Part shown: positions 2,288-15,275 of the stretch, in pieces
Layout of the letters: each line of letters starts with the position of its first letter
Position numbering within the stretch: position 1 is the first letter of the stretch
Assembly: GCA_036405175.1 (NCBI GenBank)
Contig: DASWYC010000002.1
Coordinates: forward strand, 1-55,891
Reading direction: 5' to 3'
Origin: Minisyncoccota bacterium
Lineage (GTDB): Bacteria > Patescibacteriota > Minisyncoccia > Phycocordibacterales > UBA1006
Length of the DNA stretch: 55,891 nucleotides
Program-made: the position numbers and the translations under genes
Notes under the pieces: model-generated
Seen by the model: the letters and a program-made list of their open reading frames with translations, nothing else
Told to the model about the DNA's origin: nothing
The model's database searches: none

Positions 2288-4168
2288 ATGAAATTTTATA
2301 TAAAAAAAATTGGAAAAATTGCGCTTTTTAGTATTTTATTTTATATATCCTACCCATCCAAAATATTTCCTCAATCCCCGCCAGATATTTTTGATTTAGG
2401 CGTAAACTTCGGCCTTTCCGAGGGGTTTTCTTCTAAAAGCTTAGAGTCTGGATTCGTAAGATTAAGTATAAATCGAGCTCAACATCATTTCAAATCCGCA
2501 CAATTCTTCTCAGAGGCTGATATAAATTTTAAATTTCTATTAAAACCTGAGAATCTAACATTTGTGAATATCGAAAAAACAAGAATAGAGATTGAGCAAA
2601 AACTCAATAAATCACCAAAATATCTTCAATTATTTGACTTAGGAGTAAACCTTGGACAATACGAAGCATTTGCTCACATTCTAAGAACGAAAGGATTAAG
2701 TGAAAATGATATTAACTATCTAAATAAAACTGTTACAAATAAGGCTATTTCTCATGCAAAGAATTACGGTGACTTTAAAAATTTAAATGAACTTTTTGGC
2801 ATTCTTAATACCGATAATGTCAGAAATAAGGTAGATGAGATAGCATTAATGAAGGATAATTTAGAAAGAAAATCATTAGCTCTTAGATTATCTCTTAAGG
2901 AACAATTAAATAAAAAAACCGGCTTTAGAGCTGGTGTATGTAAAATAAATCTTAGATGCGATAAAGGTGAAGGACTGGTTGGATATGAACACCCTGACTC
3001 TATAAAGAGATATGCTTTGCATAATTCTGGTGACTTATCTGTCACAGCGTTAGTTGTTGAGAATAATAATACAAAAGTAGCAATTGTAAGCATTGATGCG
3101 TTATTAATCTATGACAAAAATACACAAAGAATTAAGGCAAAAGTAGGTAATCTAATAGGTTTAAGAAATATAATTATTATTGCTTCCCACACTCATTCTG
3201 GCCCAGAATTTTCTGCAGATGATAATAATCTTACAATTCCTCAATTAGTTAGGGAAGAGCAGATAGTTTCCGCAATCGTAATAGCAGCAGGAAGTTTAAA
3301 AGAAGCTGAAATCGGTGTAGGATGGGGAAATATAAATCAAGGATATAGCCGAGTTGAAAGATTTAAGAATAGTACATCAAAAACTAAATATGTACAGATT
3401 TGCGGAAATAATATTTATAGTAATTTAATAAAGAATGCATATTTAAAACAACATCCTTTGGATTTAATTGATAATTCGATAGGAATTATAAAAATTCAAG
3501 ATAGATTTAATAAAAGCTCCATAGCTTCTTTGATAAATTACGCAATGCACCCTGTCGTATTTAGTAAAAAAAATAAAGTTCTTTCAGCAGATTATGTTGG
3601 TATATTAAGAAAATCTATAGAAAAAAGTACTAATGCTCCATGTCTCTTTTTGCAAGGAGCTGCTGGTGATATTGTACCGTGGTGTTCAACTAAAAAATAT
3701 TCTGAGGCAAAACCTGCAGCACGAGAACTTGGGGTAAGTATCTCTAAGGAAGTACTAAAGGTATCGAATAAGATAAGCACATTTTACAATAATCCTATGG
3801 TCACATTTAATTCAACATTGATTCCAATTAAACATTACGATGGGTCTGACCGTATGCCAGATGTTGGAAATATTGCAGAGATAAATACTTTGTCATTTGG
3901 TAAAGACATAGCTTTGTCTACATTTCCTGGTGAAATGTTTGTAGAGCATGGTTTAAACATAAAAAAGAAAAGTGAATTTAAAAATACATTTGTAATTGGA
4001 TATACGAACCATGCAATTGGGTATATCCCTACAAAAAAATACTTTAATACTGGCGGTTATGGAACTAGGCCAACTGAATGTTATACAGCAATAGGGACAG
4101 GAGAAACCCTTGTTGAAACAGCTTTATATATGTTAAATAAGCAGAAAAATATCCAAAATAATTTTTAA
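2288..4168 (+). CDS. neutral/alkaline ceramidase-like hydrolase, secreted
   Basis: ORF 2207..4168. The internal ATG at 2288 gives MKFYIKKIGKIALFSILFYIS, a signal-like start. IIIASHTHSGPEF and FPGEMFVEHG..IGYTNHAIGYIPT match the conserved neutral ceramidase N-terminal-domain motifs. Confidence 0.55.
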   Translation: MKFYIKKIGKIALFSILFYISYPSKIFPQSPPDIFDLGVNFGLSEGFSSKSLESGFVRLSINRAQHHFKSAQFFSEADINFKFLLKPENLTFVNIEKTRIEIEQKLNKSPKYLQLFDLGVNLGQYEAFAHILRTKGLSENDINYLNKTVTNKAISHAKNYGDFKNLNELFGILNTDNVRNKVDEIALMKDNLERKSLALRLSLKEQLNKKTGFRAGVCKINLRCDKGEGLVGYEHPDSIKRYALHNSGDLSVTALVVENNNTKVAIVSIDALLIYDKNTQRIKAKVGNLIGLRNIIIIASHTHSGPEFSADDNNLTIPQLVREEQIVSAIVIAAGSLKEAEIGVGWGNINQGYSRVERFKNSTSKTKYVQICGNNIYSNLIKNAYLKQHPLDLIDNSIGIIKIQDRFNKSSIASLINYAMHPVVFSKKNKVLSADYVGILRKSIEKSTNAPCLFLQGAAGDIVPWCSTKKYSEAKPAARELGVSISKEVLKVSNKISTFYNNPMVTFNSTLIPIKHYDGSDRMPDVGNIAEINTLSFGKDIALSTFPGEMFVEHGLNIKKKSEFKNTFVIGYTNHAIGYIPTKKYFNTGGYGTRPTECYTAIGTGETLVETALYMLNKQKNIQNNF

Positions 4169-4314
4169 TCTTACCATTTTTTGACTTTAAAAAATAAATT
4201 TAGACTATTTTATTTCACGATTTCATCAATACATTTCTTCCTCATATTTAGTGCTATTTAAATTATAAAGTAAAACAGAGGTTATTTCTAATTACTTTTA
4301 GTCTATCACGCAAT

Positions 4315-4467
4315 TCATAAACGAATTTTATTAGTAGTCAGTGGATTAATAGGAGAAATTAATTTGTTTTTTCTGCTAATATCAACCTCCTCACTTAAAT
4401 CTGGAATGATAAACATATCTTTATTCTCATCTATCCAAGTTCGAATGGCGTCAAAGGTGCTCCACAT
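4315..4467 (-). CDS. small ORF (50 aa) MWSTFDAIRTWIDENKDMFIIPDL.., the longest and only ATG-initiated, uninterrupted version of the repeated gene start
   Basis: ATG at 4467 lies inside direct-repeat copy 1 and overlaps the recombinase stop. The same N-terminus recurs at 12888 and 13815. Confidence 0.35.
   Translation of the reverse strand: MWSTFDAIRTWIDENKDMFIIPDLSEEVDISRKNKLISPINPLTTNKIRL
4333..4466 (-). repeat. direct repeat copy 1 (72-bp core 4395-4466; extended homology to copy 2 from about 4333)
   Basis: The core ..atctttattctcatctatccaagttcgaatggcgtcaaaggtgctccaca differs at 3 positions from copies 2 and 3. Confidence 0.85.
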
Positions 4468-6025
4468 CAAGAGGGTTTGCAGTAGCAAACTCTTCAAATA
4501 ACCTTATGGCACTTGGTATTTCAGTGGTTCGATAACCCTGATTTATCTCATAAGGTATTTTTTGGTCAAAAACAAAATAAAAGAGTTGTTGCTTTTCAAG
4601 AGTACTCGAATTTTCCCATGCAATATATGGGGTTTTTAAAAATGTCTTCGCTTTTGTAAGGGCGGTTCGATAAGGAACATCCAGGTCTACTTTCTGCACA
4701 CTTTCTTCCTTAATCTTTTTCAATTCTTTAACGCTCTCTTCTATTTGTTGCTCATACGCACCTCTAACTTCATCAGAGATTGTTTTAAATGCAATATCAG
4801 TAAGACCTCGTATCTTCTCCTCCAATCTCTCTTTCTCTACTTCTTTGTTAGCATGTTGTTTTTTAATATTGGAAGATTCTTCACCCCAAACACGGTCAAA
4901 AACAGTTAGTAATAGTTTGTCGACTTCATCCTTTAAAATATTCTTCTTAAGAACGGTAGCAAACCCGTCCTCAATATCTTTTTTCTTTATTGATTTTCTA
5001 TAGCAGACACAACTAGTGTTTTGGCAAAAATAATAAGCATAGTGCCCCTTACGTCCCTTTGACCATGCGGCGGTCAAATGCATATTGCACGAGCCGCAGA
5101 CTGTAATGCCGCGCATGGGAAAATCATCAGAGATATCGACTCTGATTTGTTTACCAATTTCAGATTTTCCAAGACGTTTCTGTATAAGTTGGAATGTGTT
5201 TGAAGAAATAATACCTTCATGTTTACCTGGACGCCTCTCAACTTCCCAAGGAAGATACTCAACGTCACCGACATAAAAAGGGTCTTTTAGAATTGCGGCA
5301 AACTTATCAATATAACGAGCAGGTTTTTGTTTTTTCCAAAAACCATGTTCTACCAAAAAAGCACAGGCGTCGACTTTGCGAACAAAGATACCAGTTGCAA
5401 AACCTTCTAACGCTTCTTTTAGAACAATACCCTGAATAGGGTCTGGAATTGCATATTTGCCATGCATAGGGCTTTTTACTATGAGATAGCCCTTCTTACC
5501 TCCAAATGGCCAATAACCGGCTTCCAGACGTGCTCTTTGCTTCTGTATAACCTGTCTACTATTTTGATGTCTCTCGAGTTCAGATTGAGCGGCCATAATA
5601 ATTTCAGCAAATTTACCCTCGGGACTTTCATCAAAATTATAGTTAAGGCATCTCAACAACACATTTCGTGCCTTAAAAGCGGCACGTAGTTTTAAATGGA
5701 ACTCTACATCTCGAGCAAAGCGTTTTAAGTCATCAAATACAACAACAAATTCTTTGTGAGGATGAGCGTCAATATAAGCAATAAGTTCACGCATTGCAGG
5801 ACGTCTCATAAAATCTCCCCCTCCTGTAAAACTGTCTTGAAATGTTTTCTTATGTGGAACACCAATTACGTTTAGGTCAGAAATACAACGACCCTCCTGG
5901 CTCTGTAATCCAGACCCTTCCATTTCTTGTCTTTTGCTAGAAACACGAGCATATACTAGGCCTTCTCGGTTTTCATAGATACTACTCGTTAAATTTATTT
6001 TTTTATGACTTATGTCATTTATCAT
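4451..6025 (-). CDS. large serine recombinase (integrase)
   Basis: The N-terminal resolvase motif is LVYARVSSKRQ (catalytic Ser) with RFARD. It also has a recombinase domain, the zinc ribbon CGSCNMHL..YAYYFCQNTSCVC and a C-terminal coiled coil. Length is 524 aa. Confidence 0.9.
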   Translation of the reverse strand: MINDISHKKINLTSSIYENREGLVYARVSSKRQEMEGSGLQSQEGRCISDLNVIGVPHKKTFQDSFTGGGDFMRRPAMRELIAYIDAHPHKEFVVVFDDLKRFARDVEFHLKLRAAFKARNVLLRCLNYNFDESPEGKFAEIIMAAQSELERHQNSRQVIQKQRARLEAGYWPFGGKKGYLIVKSPMHGKYAIPDPIQGIVLKEALEGFATGIFVRKVDACAFLVEHGFWKKQKPARYIDKFAAILKDPFYVGDVEYLPWEVERRPGKHEGIISSNTFQLIQKRLGKSEIGKQIRVDISDDFPMRGITVCGSCNMHLTAAWSKGRKGHYAYYFCQNTSCVCYRKSIKKKDIEDGFATVLKKNILKDEVDKLLLTVFDRVWGEESSNIKKQHANKEVEKERLEEKIRGLTDIAFKTISDEVRGAYEQQIEESVKELKKIKEESVQKVDLDVPYRTALTKAKTFLKTPYIAWENSSTLEKQQLFYFVFDQKIPYEINQGYRTTEIPSAIRLFEEFATANPLDVEHL

Positions 6026-6188
6026 ATTCTCGTAATTCCGTTTTAATCATATTTCGACAGAATGCTTCAAGATACTCAATACGCTTTATGATTAGTTCTT
6101 TCGGACTAGAATAATCATTTAAAATCTTTCTGTACTCATCTACAGAAACTACAGGTTCTTTCCTTTTTTGCTCGACCAATGGGACCAT
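6015..6188 (-). CDS. 57-aa ORF overlapping the recombinase start (candidate accessory or directionality factor)
   Basis: Hand translation gives MVPLVEQKRKEPVVSVDEYRKILNDYSSPKELIIKRIEYLEAFCRNMIKTELREYDK. Its TGA lies inside ATGATAAATGA, the recombinase start, giving an 11-nt overlap. It is below the 60-aa ORF-track cutoff. Confidence 0.3.
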   Translation of the reverse strand: MVPLVEQKRKEPVVSVDEYRKILNDYSSPKELIIKRIEYLEAFCRNMIKTELREYDK

Positions 6189-6333
6189 ATCCCAATGGTA
6201 AAGTTAGACCTATATACCTCTACAATTCCTCTCACATTAAAAACAGATGAAATGAAATCCTTTATTTACTTGAGTCGAAATAGAATTATTAACAGTCACA
6301 GACCTTTATTTTTGAAGAGGTATACCTCCTTGC

Positions 6334-6978
6334 TCACTTAAGGTTTACGTTGGTCACTCGATAGCCAGAAACATTGTCACTTTCAAACAATACGCTTCTA
6401 GGCAGTTCCCATTTCTTAACGACGATATTTCTGATTTCGTCCACAACCTTGCGAACTCTCGGGACCGGCATATCCAGTTTTTCCGAAATCTCTTTTGTGG
6501 CAACATACTCCTTTTCTTTTGCCAGAAAATAAAGTAGTTGGTAACGGTCACTATCCTTTTCAAGTTGATGCTTTTTATCCACGCCCTCGGGATAAAAGAA
6601 GCCATCGCTATCAAGAATGAAATTGCGAGCACTCATCTCTCGTTCAAGTTTCCTCGCAATCTCATTTCTGTATTCCTTAAACTTCGAATTGTCAGCAACG
6701 TAGAACCAAACCATTACTTCGTGCACAGTTCCGTCCGTAACAGTTGTAATGCCAGAAGGACTTTGGCGAAACTCAATCTTTATATTTTCTTTACTTTCTT
6801 CTCTGATTTGGTCAAAAGAAAACTGTACGAGTTCGCTGTTCTGCAAGAGAGCGTGGAAGTTTGAGAGTTGCCCAGAGCCAAGTGTAAACGCTTCAACATC
6901 GGGGTTTTGCTCAATTTGTTCCTTAAGAAAATCTAAAATCTTCTTAATCCGTTCTAAGGGTTTGTGGGACGCATTCAT
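6334..6978 (-). CDS. DNA-binding protein with C-terminal OmpR/PhoB-type winged helix
   Basis: The C-terminus DRYQLLYFLAKEKEYVATKEISEKLDMPVPRVRKVVDEIRNIV..SGYRV follows the trans_reg_C pattern. The N-terminal 140 aa are unrecognised. Confidence 0.5.
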   Translation of the reverse strand: MNASHKPLERIKKILDFLKEQIEQNPDVEAFTLGSGQLSNFHALLQNSELVQFSFDQIREESKENIKIEFRQSPSGITTVTDGTVHEVMVWFYVADNSKFKEYRNEIARKLEREMSARNFILDSDGFFYPEGVDKKHQLEKDSDRYQLLYFLAKEKEYVATKEISEKLDMPVPRVRKVVDEIRNIVVKKWELPRSVLFESDNVSGYRVTNVNLK

Positions 6979-7002
6979 AACCCTATTTTAACCCATTCGG
7001 CA

Positions 7003-7275
7003 CTACACCTTAAGTTTGGCTTTGGCGGCGTATATGGCGTCCTTAAACGCCTCCTTGTTGTGCCGTATGACTGGGTAGCACAACCTCTCTCCGCTAGTCG
7101 TAGTGACCCATACATTCGATGAGTAATAACCACCGACCTCAACAGAAGCGACCTTTTCTATCGGTACTGATTTCTCACCTTCGAAGAAGGATTTTTTGTA
7201 AATGATTCTGTCTGGAAAAACTGCAATCCTCATTCCAAGAATCTTGAAGTGGCGGTCAAATAATGGCTCGCTCAT
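7003..7275 (-). CDS. small PH-like (bPH-type) protein, 90 aa
   Basis: The pattern ..IAVFPDRIIYKK....SVPIEKVASVEVGG...VWVTTTSGE resembles bacterial PH-domain proteins. It is the first gene after the structured leader. Confidence 0.4.
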   Translation of the reverse strand: MSEPLFDRHFKILGMRIAVFPDRIIYKKSFFEGEKSVPIEKVASVEVGGYYSSNVWVTTTSGERLCYPVIRHNKEAFKDAIYAAKAKLKV

Positions 7276-7328
7276 ATCGTTTTATTTCTTTGATAAAACG
7301 GTCCGATACGACCTTCCCTTAAATATGC

Positions 7329-7478
7329 AAAAAGGGACACCCGGAGCCGGCGTCCCACAGGCTTGAATGCACAAGGCACCAATTGTGGCGGTCGGGTGCC
7401 CCTTTCAGCCCGCAATTGGGGCTTCGAAAAAGAAGCACAAGACCTTGTACATTGAAAATAAACCTATGGGACGCCCGC
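7329..7478 (-). promoter_or_regulatory. GC-rich structured RNA leader with mutually exclusive long-range P1 helix and intrinsic terminator
   Basis: On the minus strand, P1 pairs 7478-7463 with 7361-7346 (14 Watson-Crick pairs, 1 GU and 1 mismatch over 16 positions). P2 pairs 7453-7443 with 7376-7366 (11 bp including 1 GU). The terminator is GGGACGCC-loop-GGGUGUCCC (7356-7334) followed by UUUUU (7333-7329). The terminator 5-prime arm is part of the P1 3-prime strand. One position in each helix (two in total) is GU on the minus strand but A-C on the plus strand. Confidence 0.45.
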
Positions 7479-7517
7479 TAATTATAACAGATTTTCTTTA
7501 AGTAGACCCACACCCCT

Positions 7518-7590
7518 AAATTGGCATTTGAGAAGGCAATTTGCCTTAAAATAAGGGTTTTCCTATTAGGTAAATGCCAATTGCCAATTT
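7518..7590. promoter_or_regulatory. array of TTGGCA/TGCCAA dyads at the 3-prime end of the protease gene
   Basis: aaattggcattt (7518-7529) is the reverse complement of aaatgccaattt within 7572-7590, which also holds tandem gccaatt gccaatt. A central near-palindrome aaggcaatttgcctt sits at 7533-7547. Confidence 0.4.
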
Positions 7591-9859
7591 ATATTCCTGA
7601 TACGACTTCAACAGGAACGGATACATGGGTTTCAACCTCAATCATATTCTGAATCTCTTCGTGCAAATCTACACCCTCGACTTCTTTTATGTCTTCGATA
7701 GTTAGAATTACAGAGTATTTTTGCTTGTAGTCAGCAGGGACCATCAACTCATCTTTGTTTTCGCAGATAATTTTCAATTCCCAGAAACGACCTGTGTGTT
7801 CTTTGGTGTTTTTATCAATAGGCGGATAGTGCTGAACATTAGATTTTGTATGTGCACCACCGTAAGTATCTTTGGTGTTTCTACCTGCAATATTGGCATT
7901 ATCACAACGAACCAATTGGGCTGAAATAATGAGAGGATTATAAATCCTGTGATTTTTTGTATTTACAACAGGGTTATAAACTAGCGTCTTTCTTATTCTT
8001 AATCTCTTATGAGAATCACCTGCAATTGAAGCAGGTATAGGAAACCTCACAGTCTTTTGTTTGCAATCTTTTTCTCCACCAACAACTATCTCGTCTTCAA
8101 TAATTATTGTTGAACTATGGTTTGTTGAGTGCAGAGTTCTTTCTAATTGAGGTATCCCAAAACCAATCATTCGTTCTCTAATCTTCTTGCTAGCAATGCC
8201 TTGTCCGACATCCCTATTCGCAAAGTGTATTATTAAACCCTTGAGTGAATTTGTAGTTAAGTCTGGATATTGATTATGCAAAACCGATAAGTCATGTGCT
8301 ACCAGAGGTGCGGCAAAACTAGTACCACCCATTGAGGTCAAAGTATCATTGTCCTGATGAGCCATAAGTGGCCCGTTGTCTTCACAGGTGAAATCTGTTT
8401 TGTAGTTAGAATCATAATTAACAAGGTCTGGCTTTATGAAAGGAAATTTATCTAGATTGCCTCTCGTGTGAGCAACGGGGCTATTTATTTTTGCCATCGA
8501 ATCAGCAGTTTCAGCAAAAGCAATTGAGCCAACAGAAATATTGTTAATGCTATCTGCAGGAGGTAATATTCGAGCAAATTTTTCAGTGAAGTAATGCGGA
8601 TAGCCCTTTTGTAAACATTTTGTTACCAAATCCCTAGGCCAATTTTTGAATAAGTTGCCCGCAGATACAACAAACAAGCAATTATATTTATTGGCCAAGT
8701 CGTCGAGTAGAATTGTTAACTTATCGACTCCCTTAACTCTCGTGTAAGCAAGATGATAAGTGTTAATCGAAAGATTTATAATTAACACTTTGTATATCAA
8801 AGAATACTTTTTAACCGCATCTTCAATAATTGACTCGAGATTAAGAAAATTATTTTGACTCACCTTAATCGCAATAACTCTGTTGTCTTGCTGTAGAGTG
8901 CCGTTTGCAACTAAATTTCGTCCATTTATGACCAAACTAGCAACAGCAGTTCCGTGTCCCGGTTCAGAACCATCGTTATTAAGAACATCATCGAGAGCAC
9001 CTTTCAATGCAAAATGATTTTGATTTACGTCAGTATCAAAAACGATTGCAGGAGTTAGGGTAGAAGGTGGATTTATAACGCTGATATTCTGGGATTGCTT
9101 TTTAAAAGAAGACAACTCGACAATATAACTTGGACTCTTTTCTATCTTGGTTATTCCTTCAAGTTCATTTACGGTTTCTTCAATCTCATTAAAATTTGCG
9201 TGTACGCGACAAAAATGTAAGGCGTCTCTGTTTATCTTGGAAACAAATCGTTCGCCATACTTTTCAGAAACAATAGTAAGTTTTCGAGCCACATCTTCTG
9301 TTGTGCCCACAAAAGAAATATCAACAAAATGTTCAGTGTCACTAGAACTTCTCATTTCTCCCAATAGTTCTGGTTCAATGATTTCTTCTAGTTCGAGAGG
9401 TTTTATCTCTCGTATGTAATCAAAGTTTGTTTTCCCTTTATCTTTGTCCGATTCTTTGTAAGTAACAATATCTCGTTGTAGACGCTCAAATTGGGAATGT
9501 GTTTGCCCGTCCAGTTTTTTATTGCTTATTCTTCCGTAAACAATCTCGTTTTCTTTTCTATCTTGCTTTACTTTATAAACTTCAATACCGTACTTTTTAA
9601 TAAAGTCCGGTTTACGTGAACCAATAAAAGTAATTTTAAATTCGTTATTACCTTTATCATCAGTCACCAATAATTGTCCTTGTCTGTCTTCATAGAATTT
9701 TTTTATCCGGTTAACATTTCGTACGAGTAACGTCTTATGTCTTTCACGGTTAAAAGTCGGCTTGGGTTGTATATTTCTCTTGGGGCCGGGCGTATATTTA
9801 CCTTCTCGGGAAATTAGTTGTCCTGGCAAATTAAGATGTTTGTAGAGTTTTTTAGGCAT
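7589..9859 (-). CDS. S8 subtilisin-family serine peptidase with unrecognised N- and C-terminal regions (IetS-like)
   Basis: Catalytic-triad motifs are VFDTDVN (Asp), GHGTAVASL (His) and GGTSFAAPLVAH (Ser). The start lies 3 nt after the stop of the upstream ATPase gene. Length is 756 aa. Confidence 0.8.
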   Translation of the reverse strand: MPKKLYKHLNLPGQLISREGKYTPGPKRNIQPKPTFNRERHKTLLVRNVNRIKKFYEDRQGQLLVTDDKGNNEFKITFIGSRKPDFIKKYGIEVYKVKQDRKENEIVYGRISNKKLDGQTHSQFERLQRDIVTYKESDKDKGKTNFDYIREIKPLELEEIIEPELLGEMRSSSDTEHFVDISFVGTTEDVARKLTIVSEKYGERFVSKINRDALHFCRVHANFNEIEETVNELEGITKIEKSPSYIVELSSFKKQSQNISVINPPSTLTPAIVFDTDVNQNHFALKGALDDVLNNDGSEPGHGTAVASLVINGRNLVANGTLQQDNRVIAIKVSQNNFLNLESIIEDAVKKYSLIYKVLIINLSINTYHLAYTRVKGVDKLTILLDDLANKYNCLFVVSAGNLFKNWPRDLVTKCLQKGYPHYFTEKFARILPPADSINNISVGSIAFAETADSMAKINSPVAHTRGNLDKFPFIKPDLVNYDSNYKTDFTCEDNGPLMAHQDNDTLTSMGGTSFAAPLVAHDLSVLHNQYPDLTTNSLKGLIIHFANRDVGQGIASKKIRERMIGFGIPQLERTLHSTNHSSTIIIEDEIVVGGEKDCKQKTVRFPIPASIAGDSHKRLRIRKTLVYNPVVNTKNHRIYNPLIISAQLVRCDNANIAGRNTKDTYGGAHTKSNVQHYPPIDKNTKEHTGRFWELKIICENKDELMVPADYKQKYSVILTIEDIKEVEGVDLHEEIQNMIEVETHVSVPVEVVSGI

Positions 9860-9862
9860 AAA

Positions 9863-10993
9863 TTATTTCTTCCTCGGGGAATACTTTGGATAAGTATTGC
9901 GATGAATACCAAGAACAGACGCAATAACAACCTTCGGATAACCCATACTCTCAACCTCCTTTAGGAGTTTCGTAAGCAGTTTTTCATTTTTGCTTTTGAT
10001 ATTTTTAAGGCTTGATAGATAGCCATCAAACAAAAGAATCTCAAGAAAATCCTTATAAGTAATTTCTTTCCTGTCACCGAGAATCATTTCCATTTTTGCT
10101 TTCTCAATTACACCTTTGATTTCATCAACCGTGTCTAAGTTCAGCAGATTAAATACGCTGAAAATAAAGTCCCACTCTTTCTTGGAAAGTTTCGTTTCAA
10201 TACTCTTATCGTGCTCAATGAGGTAACCCAAGAAATCTTTTTTGTCAGAGTCACTTAAAGCACCGACCTCTATTTTAAATGGGAAACGTCTAAGTATTGC
10301 AGAGTCAATTGTATCTATGAGATTTGTGGCAACGATAACGATTTTATTGCTTGCAGAAAAATCCAAGGTTTGAATAATGGAGTTTACAATTCTTTTTAGT
10401 TCTCCAACATCGTTGTTGTCGGCTCTTGTTTTTGCAAAAGCATCAAACTCGTCAATAAAGATAACTTCTCGTCCTGGTGTGTGGAAAATATCGGCTATGT
10501 TTTTCATTGTCTCTCCAAGACGAGAAGACATGACATCAGTCACCTTTACGTATCGTGTAGGCAATTTCAGTTGCTCTGCAATATAAAAGCCAAGTGTTGT
10601 CTTTCCTGTACCAGGAGGACCGTAGAGTAGGATTCGATTTAGTTTTTGGTCGTCCTGTAATTTTTCTATCCTTCTGTAATATTCAAGAATCCTATCAAGT
10701 CTTTTTTTGAGAGACGATGGAAGCCAAATCTTTTTTACATCAACGTGGTAAGACTGCTTCATCGCACTCGCACTTTGAACGTGTCGAGTGCCTATAGGGG
10801 ACCCTTCAATCTCGGCCAGGAGTTTCATCAAGGAGTTATAGACCTCATGGCGATTATTATTTATTTCACTAACAGCAATCTTTTGAAGTAGGTCGAAAAG
10901 TTCCTGCCTTTCACCAATCAAACCAAGTCGGGCTATTTCAATTAAATTTTTGTTTGATTTAGAAAGCATATAGTCGAGAGTACATCTGCACAT
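9863..10993 (-). CDS. AAA+ ATPase (IetA-like) with possible C-terminal Fis-type HTH
   Basis: Walker A is GPPGTGKTT and Walker B is VIFIDEFD, with the AAA-lid pattern ILRRFPFKIEV. The C-terminus IASVLGIHRNTYPKY looks like a short HTH. The start could be ATG 10993 or ATG 10969. Confidence 0.8.
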   Translation of the reverse strand: MCRCTLDYMLSKSNKNLIEIARLGLIGERQELFDLLQKIAVSEINNNRHEVYNSLMKLLAEIEGSPIGTRHVQSASAMKQSYHVDVKKIWLPSSLKKRLDRILEYYRRIEKLQDDQKLNRILLYGPPGTGKTTLGFYIAEQLKLPTRYVKVTDVMSSRLGETMKNIADIFHTPGREVIFIDEFDAFAKTRADNNDVGELKRIVNSIIQTLDFSASNKIVIVATNLIDTIDSAILRRFPFKIEVGALSDSDKKDFLGYLIEHDKSIETKLSKKEWDFIFSVFNLLNLDTVDEIKGVIEKAKMEMILGDRKEITYKDFLEILLFDGYLSSLKNIKSKNEKLLTKLLKEVESMGYPKVVIASVLGIHRNTYPKYSPRKK

Positions 10994-11022
10994 TTTTATT
11001 ATACACGATTAAAAATGTGCAG
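10986..11022. promoter_or_regulatory. 13-bp perfect inverted repeat overlapping the ATPase promoter and start
   Basis: ctgcacattttta (10986-10998) pairs with taaaaatgtgcag (11010-11022). A minus-strand TATAAT (11004-10999) lies in the 11-bp spacer, and ATG 10993 lies in the left arm. Confidence 0.45.
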
Positions 11023-11392
11023 ACTAGTCCTTATGTTGTGAATATCCCAGAGTTTCTATAAGTTCAATACCCCCATGGTGGAGTACCTGAATTGCTACTT
11101 TATGGAGAAACAAGGGTTTCTTGTAGGTTTTTACTAGTTTGATGAAAATACCAAAAGCGAGAAAGATAACTTTTTAGGCGGTTCGATAAAACCCGACATC
11201 TGTCCACCAAAGTTGTTATTTCTAACAAATTTCAGATACCTATCATTTCAGTCTTTTAAGGAAATAAATTACTATAAGTCGATAATTAAGGAAGTTTGTT
11301 AAACATCTTAATTTTGATAAAATCTTTCTAAGGATATAATTGTTGTGAAAAAGTAGGGTTATCTTTTAACTCAATTAAAAATCCTTATTTAT

Positions 11393-12313
11393 ATGCCTAC
11401 GTTATTAGAATATTACAACAACGATTTTAAAGACCTCAGTATTGACTCAGATATTTCAATGGATTTGAGTAAATCAGATGAAAATGGGCATATTGTCCCA
11501 ATAGGACAGTTGATAATTAAAATGCGAGTTAAAAGTGAAATGAATAGCTCAAGTCTAATTTTTACTTTTTATATTCCTGAAACTACCTTAACGACTAGGA
11601 TGATACTCTCTCTACTTGATAATCTTGATGCATATAAAAAACAAATAAAAGAGGTTGAAGTTATTGGCGGTTTTTTGAATGATATTGATGTTGGAGTTCA
11701 TAATAGTACATTTTCAAGTCGCGTGTTTTTCTATGTAGAAACCCCACCATTAAAAGAAGAGATTTCACAGCTTGAAGTTTACTGTAAAGATAAAAATATT
11801 TATTTAACTATTAGAAGTTTAGATTATGTCAAAACACGTATGAGAAATGAGACACCTTTAGCATTTATCTCGCATGATTCTAGAAATAAGGAATTAATAG
11901 CAAGACCGTTAGCAAATGGCTTAAATTCAAGATTATGTACGGTTTGGTATGATGAATACTCTTTAAAGGTTGGAATGAGTTTAAGAGAATCGATTGAAGA
12001 TGGAATAAAAAAGGCAAAAAAGTGTATTTTGGTTCTCACCAAAGAGTTCCTTGAAAATCCAGGCTGGACCAGAAAAGAATTCAATTCAATTTTCACCAGG
12101 GAGATGATATTTAACGAAAGAGTTGTAATTCCCATATGGTTCAATGTAAAAAAAGAGGAGGTATATGAATATTCACCATCACTGGCTGATACTGTTGCCT
12201 TAATTTGGCCAAATCCTAGTAATCTGACAGATGATGAATACAAAGTAGAAGTAGAGAAGCTTATAAGTAAAATCCATACAGCCGTTACTGCTGAAAATAG
12301 TAAAGATTCTTAG
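11393..12313 (+). CDS. TIR-domain protein with unrecognised 150-aa N-terminal domain
   Basis: The C-terminal half LAFISHDSRNKELIARPLANGL..VWYDEYSLKVGMSLRESIEDGIKKAKKCILVLTKEFLENPGWTRKEFNSI matches the TIR_2 pattern, including the W-x3-E glutamate position. Confidence 0.8.
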   Translation: MPTLLEYYNNDFKDLSIDSDISMDLSKSDENGHIVPIGQLIIKMRVKSEMNSSSLIFTFYIPETTLTTRMILSLLDNLDAYKKQIKEVEVIGGFLNDIDVGVHNSTFSSRVFFYVETPPLKEEISQLEVYCKDKNIYLTIRSLDYVKTRMRNETPLAFISHDSRNKELIARPLANGLNSRLCTVWYDEYSLKVGMSLRESIEDGIKKAKKCILVLTKEFLENPGWTRKEFNSIFTREMIFNERVVIPIWFNVKKEEVYEYSPSLADTVALIWPNPSNLTDDEYKVEVEKLISKIHTAVTAENSKDS

Positions 12314-12319
12314 GAGAGA

Positions 12320-12493
12320 TTATTTATTCGCTATTACTAGGTTCGGCAAAGGTTTACACACCGCCATCAACAGAGTATGTATCTGCTCAAAATACTCAAT
12401 TGCCAACTGTTCAGTAAGCTCAACATCATAGAGTTCTTTATACAACACTTTAAATTTTTCAATATAGAGTGTTTTGTTTGCAAGTGAAGACAT
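12320..12493 (-). CDS. 57-aa ORF downstream of the XRE gene
   Basis: Hand translation gives MSSLANKTLYIEKFKVLYKELYDVELTEQLAIEYFEQIHTLLMAVCKPLPNLVIANK. It starts 44 nt after the XRE stop and ends 7 nt from the convergent TIR stop. It is below the ORF-track cutoff. Confidence 0.3.
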   Translation of the reverse strand: MSSLANKTLYIEKFKVLYKELYDVELTEQLAIEYFEQIHTLLMAVCKPLPNLVIANK

Positions 12494-12537
12494 ATATTAG
12501 GAATATCACATATTCATACATTAAACAATTGAGAAGC

Positions 12538-12744
12538 TTAAAGAGAAGGGTATATATCTTCCGATCTAACATTATATATTTTAGAAAGCGTCATGAGATT
12601 TATGGCACTTGGCATACCTTTACCTCGCTCCCATTCAGATAATCTATCAACACATTTCTTCCCGATAATTTCTGCTACTTGTTTTAGTGTGAGTCCTTTA
12701 TTCTTTCTAATTTCTTTTAGTCTGTTAGGGTATTTCATAATCAA
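12538..12744 (-). CDS. XRE-family helix-turn-helix regulator
   Basis: LKEIRKNKGLTLKQVAEIIGKKCVDRLSEWERGKGMPSAINLMTLSKIY is a canonical HTH_3 pattern. Confidence 0.8.
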   Translation of the reverse strand: MIMKYPNRLKEIRKNKGLTLKQVAEIIGKKCVDRLSEWERGKGMPSAINLMTLSKIYNVRSEDIYPSL

Positions 12745-12752
12745 AGTTTAAA

Positions 12753-12887
12753 TAGTTGTTAGTGGATTAATAAGAGAGGGTAATTTGCTTAATCAGCTAT
12801 CATTAACCTCCTTATTCAAATCGGGAATGATAAATGTATCTTTATTCTCATCTATCCATGTTCGTATGGCATCAAAGGTGCTCCACA
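12753..12887 (-). repeat. direct repeat copy 2 (core 12815-12887), a degenerate gene copy
   Basis: A 51-bp stretch is identical to copy 3. The ORF 12793..12888 starts with TTG instead of ATG and has an in-frame TGA where copy 1 has AGA. Confidence 0.85.
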
Positions 12888-12966
12888 AAATTGCTATTTC
12901 AGCAAATTATCCTCTCTTGAATTTTCTGGGAGAAAGATAATTGACAAAAAGAGCTATAAAACTAGA

Positions 12967-13710
12967 ATGAAGAATAGTATGGAGGACTTGATTAAAGAGG
13001 AACAAGAAATGGCTTTGAATGCTGAAAAGGAATACGGTGAATATTTTGTTCATGCAAAAAGTATGGTCACTCTTTTTAATAATCTTGTCACCCAAATGAA
13101 TATTCCTACCAGATTTATGTTTCTTGCATTTTTTTCTCAAATACGAAAGCATCTAGTATTAGCCTTGTTATCTACGGTTCGCCTTCATCACGTTCAAGCT
13201 GGAATGAATTTACGACAAGTATTAGAAGCAAGTGGGTGGGCTGCCTATGCTTTAGCTCATGAGAATGAGGCATTATTCTGGAGAAAAAATTCCGAAAATA
13301 GAGCTGAGGTTCCTAAGTCCTTAAAGGAAGCAAAAAATACATGGCTAGAAAATAACTATAAAGATGAATCCGATAAAATCAGAATATTGAAGGAATTAAT
13401 AAATGAATCCATTGCACACGCAAATATAGTTTACGCATTTCAGACGTTTGAGCTTGCTGATGACGAAAATGGTTCAGGCTATAATATGCCATATTTTGAT
13501 ATAGGAGATCATTCTTGGGTCAAAATGAACCTTCTAACCGTAGCAAATTTCACAATGAGTATTATTGGACTATTTATAAAAGTAAACCAAAAATACAATG
13601 TCTATAAATCTCCTGCTGACTTAAATCAGCAATATCAAGAGCTCATTGAAGAGCATGAAAATCTTCGTACCAAGATTCAGCAAGATGAGCGCTTTCGGCA
13701 AACAGCCTAG
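12967..13710 (+). CDS. hypothetical protein (247 aa), sole gene between repeat copies 2 and 3
   Basis: Clean ORF with TATAAA (12955-12960) exactly 6 nt before the ATG. No family recognised. Confidence 0.5.
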   Translation: MKNSMEDLIKEEQEMALNAEKEYGEYFVHAKSMVTLFNNLVTQMNIPTRFMFLAFFSQIRKHLVLALLSTVRLHHVQAGMNLRQVLEASGWAAYALAHENEALFWRKNSENRAEVPKSLKEAKNTWLENNYKDESDKIRILKELINESIAHANIVYAFQTFELADDENGSGYNMPYFDIGDHSWVKMNLLTVANFTMSIIGLFIKVNQKYNVYKSPADLNQQYQELIEEHENLRTKIQQDERFRQTA

Positions 13711-13716
13711 CATATT

Positions 13717-13815
13717 TCACTCTTCTTTACATGTCGACCCATTTAAATCTGGAATAATAAAAGTATCTTTATTCTCATCTATCCATGTTCGTATGGCATC
13801 AAAGGTGCTCCACAT
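13717..13815 (-). pseudogene. truncated copy of the repeated small gene (MWSTFDAIRTWIDENKDTFIIPDLNGSTCKEE)
   Basis: ATG at 13815 lies 7 nt downstream of the TfoX_N stop. The sequence diverges from copies 1 and 2 right after IIPDL. Confidence 0.3.
13743..13814 (-). repeat. direct repeat copy 3
   Basis: ttaaatctggaataataaaagtatctttattctcatctatccatgttcgtatggcatcaaaggtgctccaca. Confidence 0.85.
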
Positions 13816-13821
13816 AGTAAA

Positions 13822-14154
13822 TTATTTAATATTTTCTTCAATCGCTTGAGTTGCGATTTTTTCTAGTATTTCTGGAATGTCAAATAAATCTTCCGGCACC
13901 AGCCAGTAGTTCATAGAAACCACTTTCCCATCTTTCTTTTCATAACTAAACTTTTCTGATCCGTACTCTTGAAGCTCATCAATAACTGCTGAGTTTTTTG
14001 TTTTAAGATAGAAATTATTTCCAATGATTGCAGCAAAGGGAATACCATCAGCATAAATTGCCCAACCACTCATCATGGGTTTTGAAGAAATATTTCCGAG
14101 GGATCCTAAAATATCAAAAACAATAAAGTCGTGAAAGTCGAGTGACTTTTTCAT
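13822..14154 (-). CDS. TfoX N-terminal-domain protein
   Basis: ILGSLGNISSKPMMSGWAIYADGIPFAAIIGNNFYLKTK...KFSYEKKDGKVVSMNYWLVPEDL follows the TfoX_N pattern. The start was moved to ATG 14154 (MKKSLDF), which overlaps the upstream stop as TAAtATG. Confidence 0.7.
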   Translation of the reverse strand: MKKSLDFHDFIVFDILGSLGNISSKPMMSGWAIYADGIPFAAIIGNNFYLKTKNSAVIDELQEYGSEKFSYEKKDGKVVSMNYWLVPEDLFDIPEILEKIATQAIEENIK

Positions 14155-14155
14155 A

Positions 14156-14425
14156 TTACTTATAAAATTTTTTAATCCACCAACTTTTAATAAAGGGTAG
14201 TGATAAATTTGAAAGATAGTATCCAAGAGTTGGGATAATGGCTCCAAGCAGTACATTTTCCCCGCCAATAATCCAAAGTGCAAATGCGGCAATGAGATAG
14301 GTAATAACAAGAATTGTAATAAGTTTAATGCGACTTGTTTCCCATGCTTTATCTGACTGCACACGATGGTTGCGCTCTTTAATATTCTCAATTTCTTGTT
14401 CAAGTTGGCGGATTCGTTCTTCCAT
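14156..14425 (-). CDS. small membrane protein with N-terminal coiled-coil segment
   Basis: MEERIRQLEQEIENIKERNH is followed by two hydrophobic helices. The start was chosen at ATG 14425. Confidence 0.45.
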   Translation of the reverse strand: MEERIRQLEQEIENIKERNHRVQSDKAWETSRIKLITILVITYLIAAFALWIIGGENVLLGAIIPTLGYYLSNLSLPFIKSWWIKKFYK

Positions 14426-14489
14426 AATTATATTGGTATAATACACCTGAGTTTGGTAGTGCTGCAATTGACTAAGCCCCACTTTATCT

Positions 14490-15275
14490 ATGGATTTTCA
14501 TCTTATTATAATTTCAGTTATTGAAGGACTTACGGAATTTCTTCCGATTTCTTCAACGGGGCATTTGATCATCGCAGGACACTTAATGCAAGTTGATCTT
14601 GCTGATCCGTATATTAAATTCTATTTGCTATTTATTCAGCTGGGTGCATTGCTTGCTGGGGTTGTGCTGTTTTCAAAAAGAATTCTCACTGACAAAAAAA
14701 CATTCATAAATGTTCTCGTAAGTTTTATTCCAACGGCTATTCTGGGATTTGTACTCTATAAGTTATTTAAGCATTTATTAGAAGGGAATATGATCTTGCT
14801 CGCCAGCATGTTGATTCTTGGTGGAGTGATATTTATGTATTTGGAGCAAGTGTTTATGAAAAAACATGCACTCAAAAGCGGGGAGTTTGGTAAAGAAGAT
14901 ATTTCAATTAAAGATGCTGTAGTGATTGGAGTTGCTCAAGCTGCTGCTATGGTTCCTGGTGTATCGCGTTCTGGTGCTACTATTATTGCTGGAATTTTAC
15001 GTGGTATTAAAAAAGCAAGCATTATTGAATACACATTTTTGCTAGCACTTCCCACACTCGGCGCTGCGGTACTCTATGATATCTACAAATCAAAAGATGT
15101 ATTTGCGCAGATTGGATCGTATCAAGATCTGATCATGGGATTTACCGTTGCGTTTGTTGTTGGGGTTGCTACCTTAAGAATACTTAAAAAGTATTTGCCA
15201 AAGATTTCTCTCACTCATTTTGGATGGTATCGTATTGCCTTGGGAATTATTGTTATTCTGATCTTCGTTATATAA
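14490..15275 (+). CDS. uppP: undecaprenyl-diphosphate phosphatase
   Basis: The BacA/UppP signature EGLTEFLPISSTGHL lies at the N-terminus and PGVSRSGATI in the middle. The protein is polytopic. Confidence 0.9.
   Translation: MDFHLIIISVIEGLTEFLPISSTGHLIIAGHLMQVDLADPYIKFYLLFIQLGALLAGVVLFSKRILTDKKTFINVLVSFIPTAILGFVLYKLFKHLLEGNMILLASMLILGGVIFMYLEQVFMKKHALKSGEFGKEDISIKDAVVIGVAQAAAMVPGVSRSGATIIAGILRGIKKASIIEYTFLLALPTLGAAVLYDIYKSKDVFAQIGSYQDLIMGFTVAFVVGVATLRILKKYLPKISLTHFGWYRIALGIIVILIFVI

Follow-up and report, generated by a model that had tools for sequence, protein, structure and literature searches.

Previous work first reported IetAS as a plasmid-stability toxin–antitoxin system (PMC13069673, PMC8562856), and anti-phage activity of the family has been validated in E. 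coli (PMC13069673; 10.1101/2022.08.21.504612). In the published IetAS work and in that on mycoplasma AAA/subtilase toxin–antitoxin systems, an AAA+ ATPase keeps the protease harmless, and the mycoplasma homologs are chromosomal toxin–antitoxin pairs whose antitoxin is essential (PMC13069673, PMC8562856). IetAS functions elsewhere as a two-gene system (PMC13069673, PMC8562856), and a third gene can join it, as in ietHAS, in which an SNF2 helicase encoded in the operon was shown to be required (PMC13069673). TIR proteins are paired with a caspase-like protease in type IV Thoeris, a system mentioned in PMC13069673.

Here, we analyze an 8.4-kb unit (~4470–12890) in a 55,891-nt window (the whole stretch of DNA that was analyzed) from a Minisyncoccota bacterium, in which an ATPase gene and an S8 protease gene lie beside a TIR gene. 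A first-pass annotation had joined the three into one module with a protease-licensed TIR protein. We find that the linkage of these genes is not conserved, and consider it likely that the locus is a small composite integrative element whose IetAS cassette and stand-alone TIR gene are two autonomous cargo systems (Table 1).

Table 1. Features of the unit and its surroundings, in window positions; L numbers denote compared loci.
Feature	Coordinates	Strand	Description
Direct-repeat copy A	4225..4466	.	Left boundary of the 8.4-kb unit
Large serine recombinase, 524 aa	4451..6025	-	Integrase of the element
57-aa ORF	6015..6188	-	Overlaps the recombinase start; also gene-called in L001
214-aa protein	6334..6978	-	GC 41%
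90-aa protein	7003..7275	-	GC 45%
GC-rich intergenic region	7276..7588	-	~140-nt imperfect hairpin, from folding against shuffles
ietS	7589..9859	-	756-aa S8 (subtilisin-like) serine protease; predicted toxin/effector
ietA	9863..10969	-	AAA+ ATPase, classical clade, C-terminal HTH; predicted antitoxin and autoregulator
ietA promoter and operator	10985..11023	-	14-bp inverted repeat with an extended -10 box in the spacer
Stand-alone TIR protein, 306 aa	11393..12313	+	N-terminal alpha/beta domain 1–150 and AbTir-class TIR domain ~155–300
57-aa ORF	12320..12493	-	Also gene-called in L001–L003
XRE-family HTH regulator, 68 aa	12538..12744	-	Pfam HTH_3 7.4e-12; PHROG transcriptional repressor families
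Direct-repeat copy B	12646..12887	.	Right boundary of the 8.4-kb unit; overlaps the XRE 5' part and a small ORF
Third ~75-bp core copy	13740..13815	.	91% identity to core A (blastn)

The ATPase–protease pair

The ATPase and protease genes share the minus strand, with the ATPase upstream and 3 nt between its stop and the protease start; this gap, the two reading frames (9863–10993 and 7589–9859) and the Walker and D/H/S motifs were all found as the first-pass annotation had described them. IetA contains Walker A (GPPGTGKTT, K131) and Walker B (IFIDEFD), and its K131, D181 and E182 show no variation in 71 homologs, while D275, H302, N402 and S514 (GTSFAAP) of IetS show none in 22. Pfam matched the ATPase to AAA (5.4e-28) and the protease to Peptidase_S8 (1.2e-22). 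The proposed assignment of the pair to IetAS was borne out by PADLOC, in which the IetA profile PDLC02196 aligned with residues 82–367 of the ATPase over positions 84–363 of 374 (5.5e-60), three more IetA profiles matched, and the IetS profile PDLC02197 aligned with residues 121–746 of the protease over positions 108–737 of 749 (1.9e-58). PHROG matches were found for IetA (phrog_3757, 1.7e-60) and over the full length of IetS (phrog_3964, 1e-65, residues 8–751). The top NCBIfam matches, IteA for the ATPase (175 bits, equivalog cut-off 510) and IteS for the protease (151 bits, equivalog cut-off 900), lie well under their cut-offs, indicating a divergent subfamily rather than equivalogs of the reference proteins. 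As the strong, near full-length HMM matches, the gene order, the spacing and the catalytic residues all fit, we conclude from sequence that the two genes are a true IetA/IetS pair of a divergent clade.

The pair resembles IetAS from Agrobacterium pTiC58 and E. coli in its same-strand, nearly abutting order of ATPase and then protease, its near full-length HMM matches, its intact Walker A/B motifs and D/H/S triad, the C-terminal HTH of its ATPase, and its setting, since IetAS pairs are often found on mobile elements and prophages. In contrast, the protease of the present clade is just 22–28% identical to canonical S8 partners, the precomputed N-terminal Pfam families PF27210 and PF27160 of canonical IetS relatives are unlisted for it, and the closest named relatives of the pair come from Patescibacteria-type MAGs. 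TA132/133 of Mycoplasma mycoides (PMC8562856) is nearly the same in size (353 and 757 aa, against 368 or 376 and 756 aa here), has the antitoxin gene upstream with an essentially zero intergenic gap, and is likewise chromosomal in a reduced-genome bacterium with direct repeats at its flanks, although it belongs to another host lineage; the comparison covers size and layout.

The ATPase frame is readable over 376 aa, and its most likely start is M9 at 10969, giving 368 aa, because the upstream ATG falls inside a conserved operator arm and the gene call on a 668-kb contig has the shorter form. In the AlphaFold2 model of IetA (pLDDT 87.8) the C-terminus forms three helices at residues 337–370 (pLDDT >94), in keeping with the short HTH that the first-pass annotation had placed there as a feature beyond IetAS. 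Distant IetA homologs score Pfam HTH_24, HTH_7 and HTH_11 at this same position; the HTH belongs to the IetA family as a whole and is no add-on. The top Foldseek structures for IetA were Rpt, FtsH, Vps4 and p97, and a GIHRN(T/S)Y motif is nearly invariant among its homologs.

The ietA promoter and operator

Upstream of ietA, a repeat search revealed a perfect 14-bp inverted repeat, TCTGCACATTTTTA N11 TAAAAATGTGCAGA, whose spacer contains TGTATAAT, an extended -10 box, with a TGCACA...TGTGCA palindrome flanking the TATAAT box on both sides. Upstream DNA could be read in 17 distinct homologous loci, none of which has TIR; the TGCACA-N-TATAAT-N-TGTGCA layout recurs 5–25 nt 5' of the ietA start in 16 of them, and the 17th has a degenerate copy. 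The IetA HTH variant (HRNT/HRNS) co-varies with the operator variant (TGCACAT/TGCACAA), and from this co-conservation we infer that IetA binds the TGCACA...TGTGCA operator. The 400 bp between ietA and the TIR gene had been taken as a shared control region; that view gives way to a compact promoter/operator that sits at most 60 nt from ietA and is kept in loci without TIR. A promoter-like site at 11296–11323, separate from the ietA promoter, precedes the TIR gene, and together with the conserved operator it argues for separate control of IetAS and TIR.

In the model we favor, IetS would be the toxin/effector of a two-gene cassette, and IetA, a classical-clade AAA+ protein of the protein-remodelling type, would hold it harmless while repressing its own promoter through the C-terminal HTH on the operator around the -10 box. 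Infection or loss of the element may disturb the balance between IetA and IetS and free the protease, which could then bring about growth arrest or abortive infection, or else post-segregational killing. The TIR gene would run from its own candidate promoter; its AbTir-class domain (E229) is predicted to cleave NAD+, and its private N-domain may control activation through sensing or oligomerisation.

A different weighting of these roles, possible if somewhat doubtful, is that the chief role of ietAS in this host is addiction (post-segregational killing), which would stabilise the element, while phage defence takes second place or is missing and the actual defence cargo is the TIR gene. The predicted toxin–antitoxin-like autoregulated promoter of ietA would suit such a role, as would the history of IetAS as a plasmid-stability system, the chromosomal toxin–antitoxin homologs of mycoplasma (PMC13069673, PMC8562856) and the location of ietAS on serine-recombinase elements at several loci (serine recombinases adjoin IetAS in ~8 related loci). 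However, addiction and defence are not mutually exclusive, and the anti-phage validation of the family in E. coli (PMC13069673; 10.1101/2022.08.21.504612) speaks for defence.

The TIR protein and its linkage to IetAS

ietA and the TIR gene point away from each other across 399 bp. The N-terminal 150 aa of the TIR protein, unrecognised in the first-pass annotation, have no match in Pfam, PADLOC or PHROGs, and none was seen in PDB or BFVD; this N-domain is rare, as a search of 1.84 billion proteins yielded just 37 representative clusters. The protein matched Pfam TIR_2 (1.7e-14, residues 158–253), and with this match the PADLOC and Pfam runs that the annotation had proposed recovered IetA, IetS, AAA, Peptidase_S8 and TIR_2. 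PADLOC further matched PDC-S66 (4.7e-40, restricted to profile positions 151–271 of 282, the TIR part, leaving the N-domain unmatched) and ThsB1 (2.4e-26, residues 79–270). A PDB profile search retrieved AbTir (1.4e-35, 35–38% identity), and Foldseek with the AlphaFold2 model (pLDDT 84.8) retrieved 7uxu (5e-10, TM-score 0.84 on the target). W225 and E229 are unchanged across 77 homologs; E229, which from the PDB alignment and the W-x3-E motif we take to correspond to the AbTir catalytic Glu, is the predicted catalytic residue. The protein is similar to the single-gene PADLOC candidate PDC-S66 and to bacterial TIR NADases of the AbTir/BtTir/BtpA class in its TIR domain match, its W-x3-E motif, its length (~300 aa, with an N-terminal region of ~150 aa) and its status as a lone gene without a conserved partner, whereas its N-domain fits neither the PDC-S66 profile nor the AbTir coiled coil.

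To gauge linkage we compared ~170 loci: 62 genome loci of the TIR family (35 matching from the N-domain onward, 45 with at least 4 kb upstream), 28 loci of close IetS relatives (~20 distinct, mainly short metagenome contigs) and 80 IMG/VR IetA loci. Neither IetA nor IetS was found near the N-domain+TIR gene in any of the 62 genome loci, nor did any neighbor family recur within 5 kb of it. No TIR lies near the close IetS relatives in the 28 loci, where ietA is directly 5' of ietS wherever upstream DNA is present, and an IetS-like gene follows IetA in 60 of the 80 distant IMG/VR loci. Across all 108 IetAS-type loci (28 close and 80 IMG/VR), a TIR HMM detected one TIR ORF, in IMG/VR locus L105; this ORF differs in architecture and is found near a canonical IetAS pair, two genes off and on the same strand. 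The first-pass annotation had itself named a lack of conserved TIR adjacency as evidence against its proposal; with adjacency in 0/62, 0/28 and 1/80 loci, the three-part module is unsupported. The conserved linkage of components required of the three-gene NTPase/peptidase/effector class, to which the annotation had pointed in the comparative-genomics literature, is not seen in these comparisons.

Composition and ancestry point the same way. The GC content of ietAS is 36–37% and that of the TIR gene 32%, and the closest TIR relatives are Prolixibacteraceae, Sphingobacteriaceae and Gracilibacteria MAGs, those of IetAS with a name being Patescibacteria MAGs, which argues for separate origins. The N-domain+TIR protein is kept at 34–70% identity in genomes without IetAS in the 10-kb flanks and, as the gene is absent from the flanks examined, the N-domain there cannot depend on IetS.

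It is thus improbable that the three genes form one module in which, upon infection, cleavage of the TIR protein by IetS, such as removal of the N-domain, would license NAD+ depletion. The missing linkage in 62/62 TIR-family and 28/28 close IetAS loci, the persistence of the TIR protein without nearby IetAS, the conserved promoter/operator of ietA itself, and the differences in GC and nearest relatives weigh more heavily with us than the adjacency of the genes, divergent over 399 bp within one mobile unit, or the idea that the N-domain could be an inhibitory pro-domain. L105 likewise has TIR near canonical IetAS, but differs in architecture, spacing and strand arrangement. Validated ietHAS demonstrates that accessory recruitment to IetAS does occur (PMC13069673) and is a precedent for a third gene, whereas here the extra gene is divergent, has a promoter of its own and lacks conserved linkage.

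Less credible still is a Thoeris-like order, in which TIR would sense infection and a cyclic ADP-ribose-type signal would switch on the IetA/IetS protease: despite the ThsB1 match, the TIR gene lying beside a protease gene, the AbTir-class structure solved with the NAD+ analogue 3AD (PDB 7uxu) and the TIR–protease pairing of type IV Thoeris mentioned in PMC13069673, adjacency is conserved in neither direction, Pfam and PADLOC scans found no SLOG, Macro or SAVED-type nucleotide sensor in IetA or IetS, the S8 protease here has its own ATPase partner in a system that works elsewhere with two genes (PMC13069673, PMC8562856), and neither ThsA (SIR2, Macro or SLOG) nor any other extra PADLOC match was found in the island or the other large window ORFs tested.

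Synergy of ietAS with unrelated systems has been published (10.1101/2022.08.21.504612), and a missing conserved linkage is still compatible with a locally evolved or synergistic interaction between IetAS and TIR.

The putative mobile unit and the region downstream of ietS

Mobile elements gather defence cargo, and we read the side-by-side position of the autonomous IetAS and TIR systems in this way rather than as one machine. In the unit that holds both, the large serine recombinase and the XRE regulator occupy opposite ends; the genome is low in GC, and the neighbors of the region are a ceramidase gene on one side and uppP on the other. The recombinase matches Pfam Resolvase (1.5e-17), Recombinase and Zn_ribbon_recom and the PHROG integrase family phrog_95 (9.6e-55), with NCBIfam XisF and CcrB matches under their cut-offs; the XRE-family protein is probably the regulator of the element. 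Neither 57-aa ORF has a family match in Pfam, PADLOC or PHROGs. The one at the recombinase start, where L066 has a 67-aa ORF at the equivalent place, might conceivably be a recombinase accessory.

The first-pass annotation had also listed a structured RNA leader, a 'PH-like' gene and a 'winged-helix' gene, all downstream of ietS, among the features beyond IetAS. The 90-aa protein, labelled PH-like, has no match in Pfam, PADLOC, PHROGs or NCBIfam and none among PDB sequences below E 0.08; the 214-aa protein, labelled winged-helix, has none in Pfam, PHROGs, NCBIfam or phage genomes and none among PDB sequences below E 0.08, with just one marginal PADLOC line (E 0.0089). Neither label could be verified by these searches, and homologs of the two proteins are absent from the 28 IetAS loci. 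Compared with shuffled sequence, the intergenic region is much more stably folded, with z -4.5 for the minus strand (minimum free energy -111 kcal/mol), but the plus strand behaves alike (z -4.7), and the region has no Rfam match at E<=1 and no similar DNA in any fetched related locus. Rather than a demonstrated leader, it is a long, imperfect palindrome whose 3' end resembles a terminator, with a stem and T-run at 7356–7334 that ends the hairpin; its probable identity is either the terminator of ietAS or a palindromic element.

The boundaries of the unit are ~240-bp direct repeats, 80–83% identical and spaced 8421 bp apart (repeat search and alignment), and these repeats suggest that the element is mobile. 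A search for an empty site or circular form found neither. Copy A looks like the remnant of an older unit, comprising a decayed XRE 5' fragment riddled with stop codons, a small ORF and a ~75-bp core that starts with the final 4 codons and stop of the recombinase gene. Within copy B, two Logan contigs terminate at window position 12865. The third core keeps the VEHL-stop codons of a recombinase 3' end and closes a 0.9-kb remnant unit containing a 247-aa ORF (12967–13710).

The divergent IetAS pair

All of the open reading frames named in the first-pass annotation are present at the coordinates it gave, and its reading of the ATPase and protease genes as an IetAS defense pair is borne out by three resources. 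The ATPase matches the PADLOC IetA profile PDLC02196 at 5.5e-60, and the protease matches the IetS profile PDLC02197 at 1.9e-58, with residues 121-746 covering positions 108-737 of the 749-position profile. PHROGs contain a full-length counterpart pair (phrog_3757 and phrog_3964), and the best NCBIfam matches are IteA (175 bits; equivalog cut-off 510) and IteS (151 bits; cut-off 900), both far below their cut-offs. Around IetAS and the TIR gene lie further ORFs of 214 aa and 90 aa, two of 57 aa, and a 247-aa orphan; the island is flanked by a ceramidase gene (ending at 4168) on one side and uppP (from 14490) on the other.

Features of the IetAS-TIR island and of the type IV pilus genes elsewhere in the window
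Feature	Coordinates	Strand	Description
Large serine recombinase	4451-6025	-	524 aa
S8 protease (ietS)	7589-9859	-	756 aa, 3 nt downstream of the ATPase; Pfam Peptidase_S8 1.2e-22
AAA+ ATPase (ietA)	9863-10993	-	376 aa as ORF; Pfam AAA 5.4e-28
TIR protein	11393-12313	+	306 aa, divergent from the ATPase over 399 bp; Pfam TIR_2 1.7e-14
XRE regulator	12538-12744	-	68 aa
Intact 8.4-kb unit	~4470-12890		Order: recombinase, ietAS, TIR, XRE, core
PilB (type IV pilus)	35016-36770
PilC (type IV pilus)	40558-41769

Both enzymes retain their catalytic residues: Walker A K131 and Walker B D181/E182 of the ATPase are invariant across 71 homologs, as are D275, H302, N402 and S514 of the protease across 22. 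The predicted IetA model (pLDDT 87.8) adopts a classical-clade AAA+ fold whose top structural matches, the proteasomal Rpt subunits, FtsH, Vps4 and p97, are all protein-remodeling ATPases. Proteases of the IetS type are toxic and IetA-type ATPases neutralize this toxicity; defense requires protease activity, and how IetAS acts against phage is not yet known (PMC13069673, PMC8562856).

The protease has about 45 near relatives in the protein database, at 35-75% identity and 741-763 aa, followed by a gap and then by canonical S8 partners at only 22-28% identity. Named members of this close IetS clade come from Patescibacteria-type metagenome-assembled genomes (Paceibacterota, Yanofskybacteria, Beckwithbacteria and Saccharimonadales), and an IetS-clade scan of IMG/VR found no relatives. 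The type IV pilus genes in the window and a 668-kb contig that carries these proteins would both suit a Patescibacteria-type host. By sequence comparison, the pair belongs to a divergent IetAS clade.

A TIR gene without conserved linkage to IetAS

The predicted model of the TIR protein (pLDDT 84.8) comprises an alpha/beta N-terminal domain (residues 1-150) and a TIR domain whose nearest kin are AbTir, BtTir, BtpA and PdTIR (1.4e-35 in a profile search against PDB sequences; 35-38% identity in Foldseek structural alignments, with a TM-score of 0.84 on the target for 7uxu). No variation in the W225-x3-E229 motif is seen among 77 sequences, and E229 aligns with the glutamate in the AbTir 'WTNYE' segment. 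Given this AbTir-class fold and invariant motif, we predict that the protein is an active enzyme with NAD+ as its substrate.

The N-domain is rare, with just 37 representative clusters in 1.84 billion proteins, and its partner region, where identifiable, is again TIR. A Pfam scan of relatives of other lengths returned TIR or no match, and thus gave no evidence of fusion to other effectors. Searching the whole model against the PDB and BFVD returned TIR-domain matches and none for the N-domain, and no ThsA-type partner was detected in the island or among the other large window ORFs tested. A rare domain found almost always with an AbTir-class TIR in a stand-alone gene is a candidate sensor for single-gene TIR defense.

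The first-pass annotation had proposed that the TIR protein may be the third component of the IetAS module, licensed by the protease, and we examined this linkage from both sides. As a family, the full 306-aa architecture is well conserved: it has 660 matches in the database, the best 120 of which show 46-70% identity and are mostly about 300 aa long. Scanning one genome per species yielded 62 TIR loci with flanks of up to 10 kb per side; at least 4 kb of upstream sequence was available in 45, and 35 were matched from the N-domain onward. Tblastn with IetA and IetS recovered no IetAS in these 62 loci, the sole notable match being an AAA protein at 31% identity, 9 kb away in one locus. Clustering of neighbors within 5 kb likewise gave not one recurrent partner family, which argues that the TIR gene acts as a stand-alone unit and agrees with its top PADLOC match, the single-gene candidate PDC-S66.

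From the other side, we collected 28 close loci (about 20 distinct) with IetS relatives at 36-75% identity. Wherever the DNA directly upstream of ietS is present it encodes ietA, and none of the 28 contains a TIR gene or either of the genes for the 214-aa and 90-aa proteins. The two-gene linkage extends to IetA-like ATPase loci in IMG/VR, where an IetS-like gene lies immediately downstream in 60 of 80. A TIR HMM built on 77 family members found a single TIR ORF among all 108 IetAS-type loci, in L105, a locus from IMG/VR (UViG 3300027858_000012; L105 5078-11127). This TIR protein has a different architecture (268 aa, N-terminal TIR). Its gene shares the strand of a canonical IetA/IetS pair and is two genes upstream of that pair, with two unannotated ORFs (158 and 342 aa) in between.

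The counts are 0 of 62 TIR-family loci with IetAS, 0 of 28 close IetAS loci with TIR, and 1 of 108 IetAS-type loci overall. Adjacency of the TIR gene is not conserved, the outcome that the first-pass annotation itself had named as refuting its proposal. A three-part module is not supported, and the comparative evidence speaks against a protease-licensed TIR. In our reading the locus combines an IetAS pair from a divergent clade with a TIR gene resembling PDC-S66, both riding as cargo on a small integrative element. It is very improbable that the TIR gene was instead newly recruited to IetAS on this element, whether its product is a substrate or effector that IetS licenses or a synergistic partner whose depletion of NAD+ tips the IetA/IetS balance. 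Were such recruitment true, the locus would capture a nascent three-component system at its origin, L105 would represent a second, independent recruitment, and a protease-licensed TIR would constitute a new immune logic.

A probable repeat-bounded integrative element

The co-residence of IetAS and TIR is set within a repeat structure. Some 240 bp of sequence at 4225-4466 (copy A) are repeated 8421 bp further on, at 12646-12887 (copy B), with the two copies 80-83% identical, and the roughly 75-bp core of this repeat has a third copy at 13740-13815; all three copies are direct. Each core starts with GTGGAGCACCTTTGA, which corresponds to the recombinase gene's final four codons plus its stop, and similarity breaks off exactly there. 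Copy A also contains a decayed XRE 5' fragment, and two Logan metagenome contigs terminate at 12865, inside copy B. The three cores and the decayed XRE point to a composite island of tandem units, which we read as a remnant (4225-4470), the intact 8.4-kb unit, and a 0.9-kb remnant that contains the 247-aa ORF. The layout resembles composite islands made by large serine recombinases; the recombinase here has weak NCBIfam matches to CcrB and XisF.

Base composition varies along the unit, with 41-45% GC in the genes for the 214-aa and 90-aa proteins and in the hairpin beside them, 36-37% in ietAS, and 32-34% in the TIR, 57-aa and XRE genes. Serine recombinases also lie beside IetAS in related loci. 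The closest IetAS relative, at 75-80% identity (L066, Logan SRR22388314, 2-8867), sits in an element inserted beside ychF that carries a primase-helicase (Prim-Pol/PriCT_1/AAA_25) as well as a serine recombinase of 547 aa. The GC mosaic and recombinase-adjacent relatives fit a mosaic, mobile origin, and small integrative elements seem to carry IetAS of this clade repeatedly. The locus documents a divergent IetAS clade on serine-recombinase elements, with named relatives in reduced-genome Patescibacteria-like bacteria.

Exact-protein look-up found no empty integration site or circular junction, so we infer mobility rather than observe it; the 247-aa ORF had no record in this look-up, and the ceramidase occurred on one contig only, with the island included. 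Upstream of the ceramidase on the same contig (L174, 1-9685) are genes for a 1000-aa GDSL lipase/Peptidase_S74 protein, a Dam-type methyltransferase, RadC and an HTH protein, suggesting that the island may adjoin older prophage-like material.

The ietA operator and neighboring sequences

Upstream of ietA we identified a perfect 14-bp inverted repeat (10985-11023). The TGCACA...TGTGCA palindrome around TATAAT occurs at the equivalent positions (L067-L087) in 16 of the 17 distinct homologous loci whose upstream DNA is readable; the remaining locus has a degenerate copy. The layout, TTGAyTGCACAwwTTT - N7-8 - TATAAT - N - AAAwwTGTGCA, lies 5-25 nt ahead of the ietA start codon, and its arms flank the -10 box, as is classic for repressors that act by promoter occlusion. 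As the upstream ATG (10993) falls within the right operator arm, ietA probably starts at 10969.

The candidate binder is IetA itself. The C-terminal HTH proposed in the first-pass annotation exists, forming three helices in the predicted model (residues 337-370, pLDDT >94) and including a nearly invariant GIHRN(T/S)Y motif, but it is not an addition to the IetAS architecture: the PADLOC IetA profile spans it, and IetA-like proteins at 27% identity have Pfam HTH_24, HTH_7 and HTH_11 matches at residues 333-371. Neither the outer half-site (TGCACA) nor the H-R-N residues of the recognition helix vary, and the HTH variants pair with operator variants (HRNT with TGCACAT, HRNS with TGCACAA), a correlation confounded by phylogeny. 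Because these loci share no other conserved DNA-binding protein, IetA is the most likely operator binder, and the tracking of operator variants with HRNT/HRNS suggests that IetA represses its own promoter in a toxin-antitoxin-style autoregulation of the ietAS operon. The conserved operator, paired with the conserved IetA HTH, is a testable regulatory feature and the most useful by-product of this analysis.

A working model can be sketched in which IetA represses its own promoter, and infection or loss of the element would disturb IetA and free IetS. The TIR protein would be activated via its own N-domain and deplete NAD+.

The region of about 400 bp is not a control region common to ietA and TIR: ietA uses its proximal 60 nt of the 399 bp, and the TIR gene is preceded by a separate promoter-like site (11296-11323). 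Among all fetched loci, relatives of the divergent region occurred only in the same organism's own contigs. Two repeat matches within it (D2 and D19), considered as a further XRE or recombinase scar, were rejected as probably due to chance, since they span 17-21 nt and their order is wrong. Short contigs in two metagenome samples start at 11248 (the start of contig L003), between the ietA and TIR promoters, and end at 12865; population variants with another left neighbor for the TIR/57-aa/XRE module could explain them, as could simply low coverage.

Downstream of ietS, the 313-nt spacer (7276-7588) forms a long imperfect hairpin with a terminator-like end on the gene strand (7356-7334). The strong fold of the proposed structured RNA leader stands, but it is alike on both strands (z -4.5 minus, z -4.7 plus); scanning 3800-15000 against Rfam (E<=1) gave no hairpin family, only a chance-level isrK line within ietA, and relatives across all fetched loci came only from the organism's own contigs. 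We read the spacer as a palindromic element or operon terminator rather than a demonstrated leader. Its GC-rich imperfect palindrome of about 140 nt (7335-7480; 44% GC versus 38% for the window), whose fold is strong on either strand, may represent a terminator, a MITE-like element or a recombination site. The 'PH-like' (90 aa) and 'winged-helix' (214 aa) labels found no backing, as neither protein matched family libraries, PDB sequences or related loci; the 214-aa protein also had no match in phage genomes.

Elsewhere in the window, two large ORFs near the type IV pilus genes, of 1358 aa (26619-30695, plus strand) and 840 aa (36871-39393, plus strand), had no NCBIfam or PADLOC match. The top NCBIfam model for a 443-aa beta-CASP/MBL nuclease (44905-46236, minus strand) is the type VII CRISPR-associated Cas14 (1.4e-117; 394 bits, cut-off 800), followed by aCPSF1; the nuclease has no PADLOC match and is probably a housekeeping RNase J/CPSF-like enzyme.
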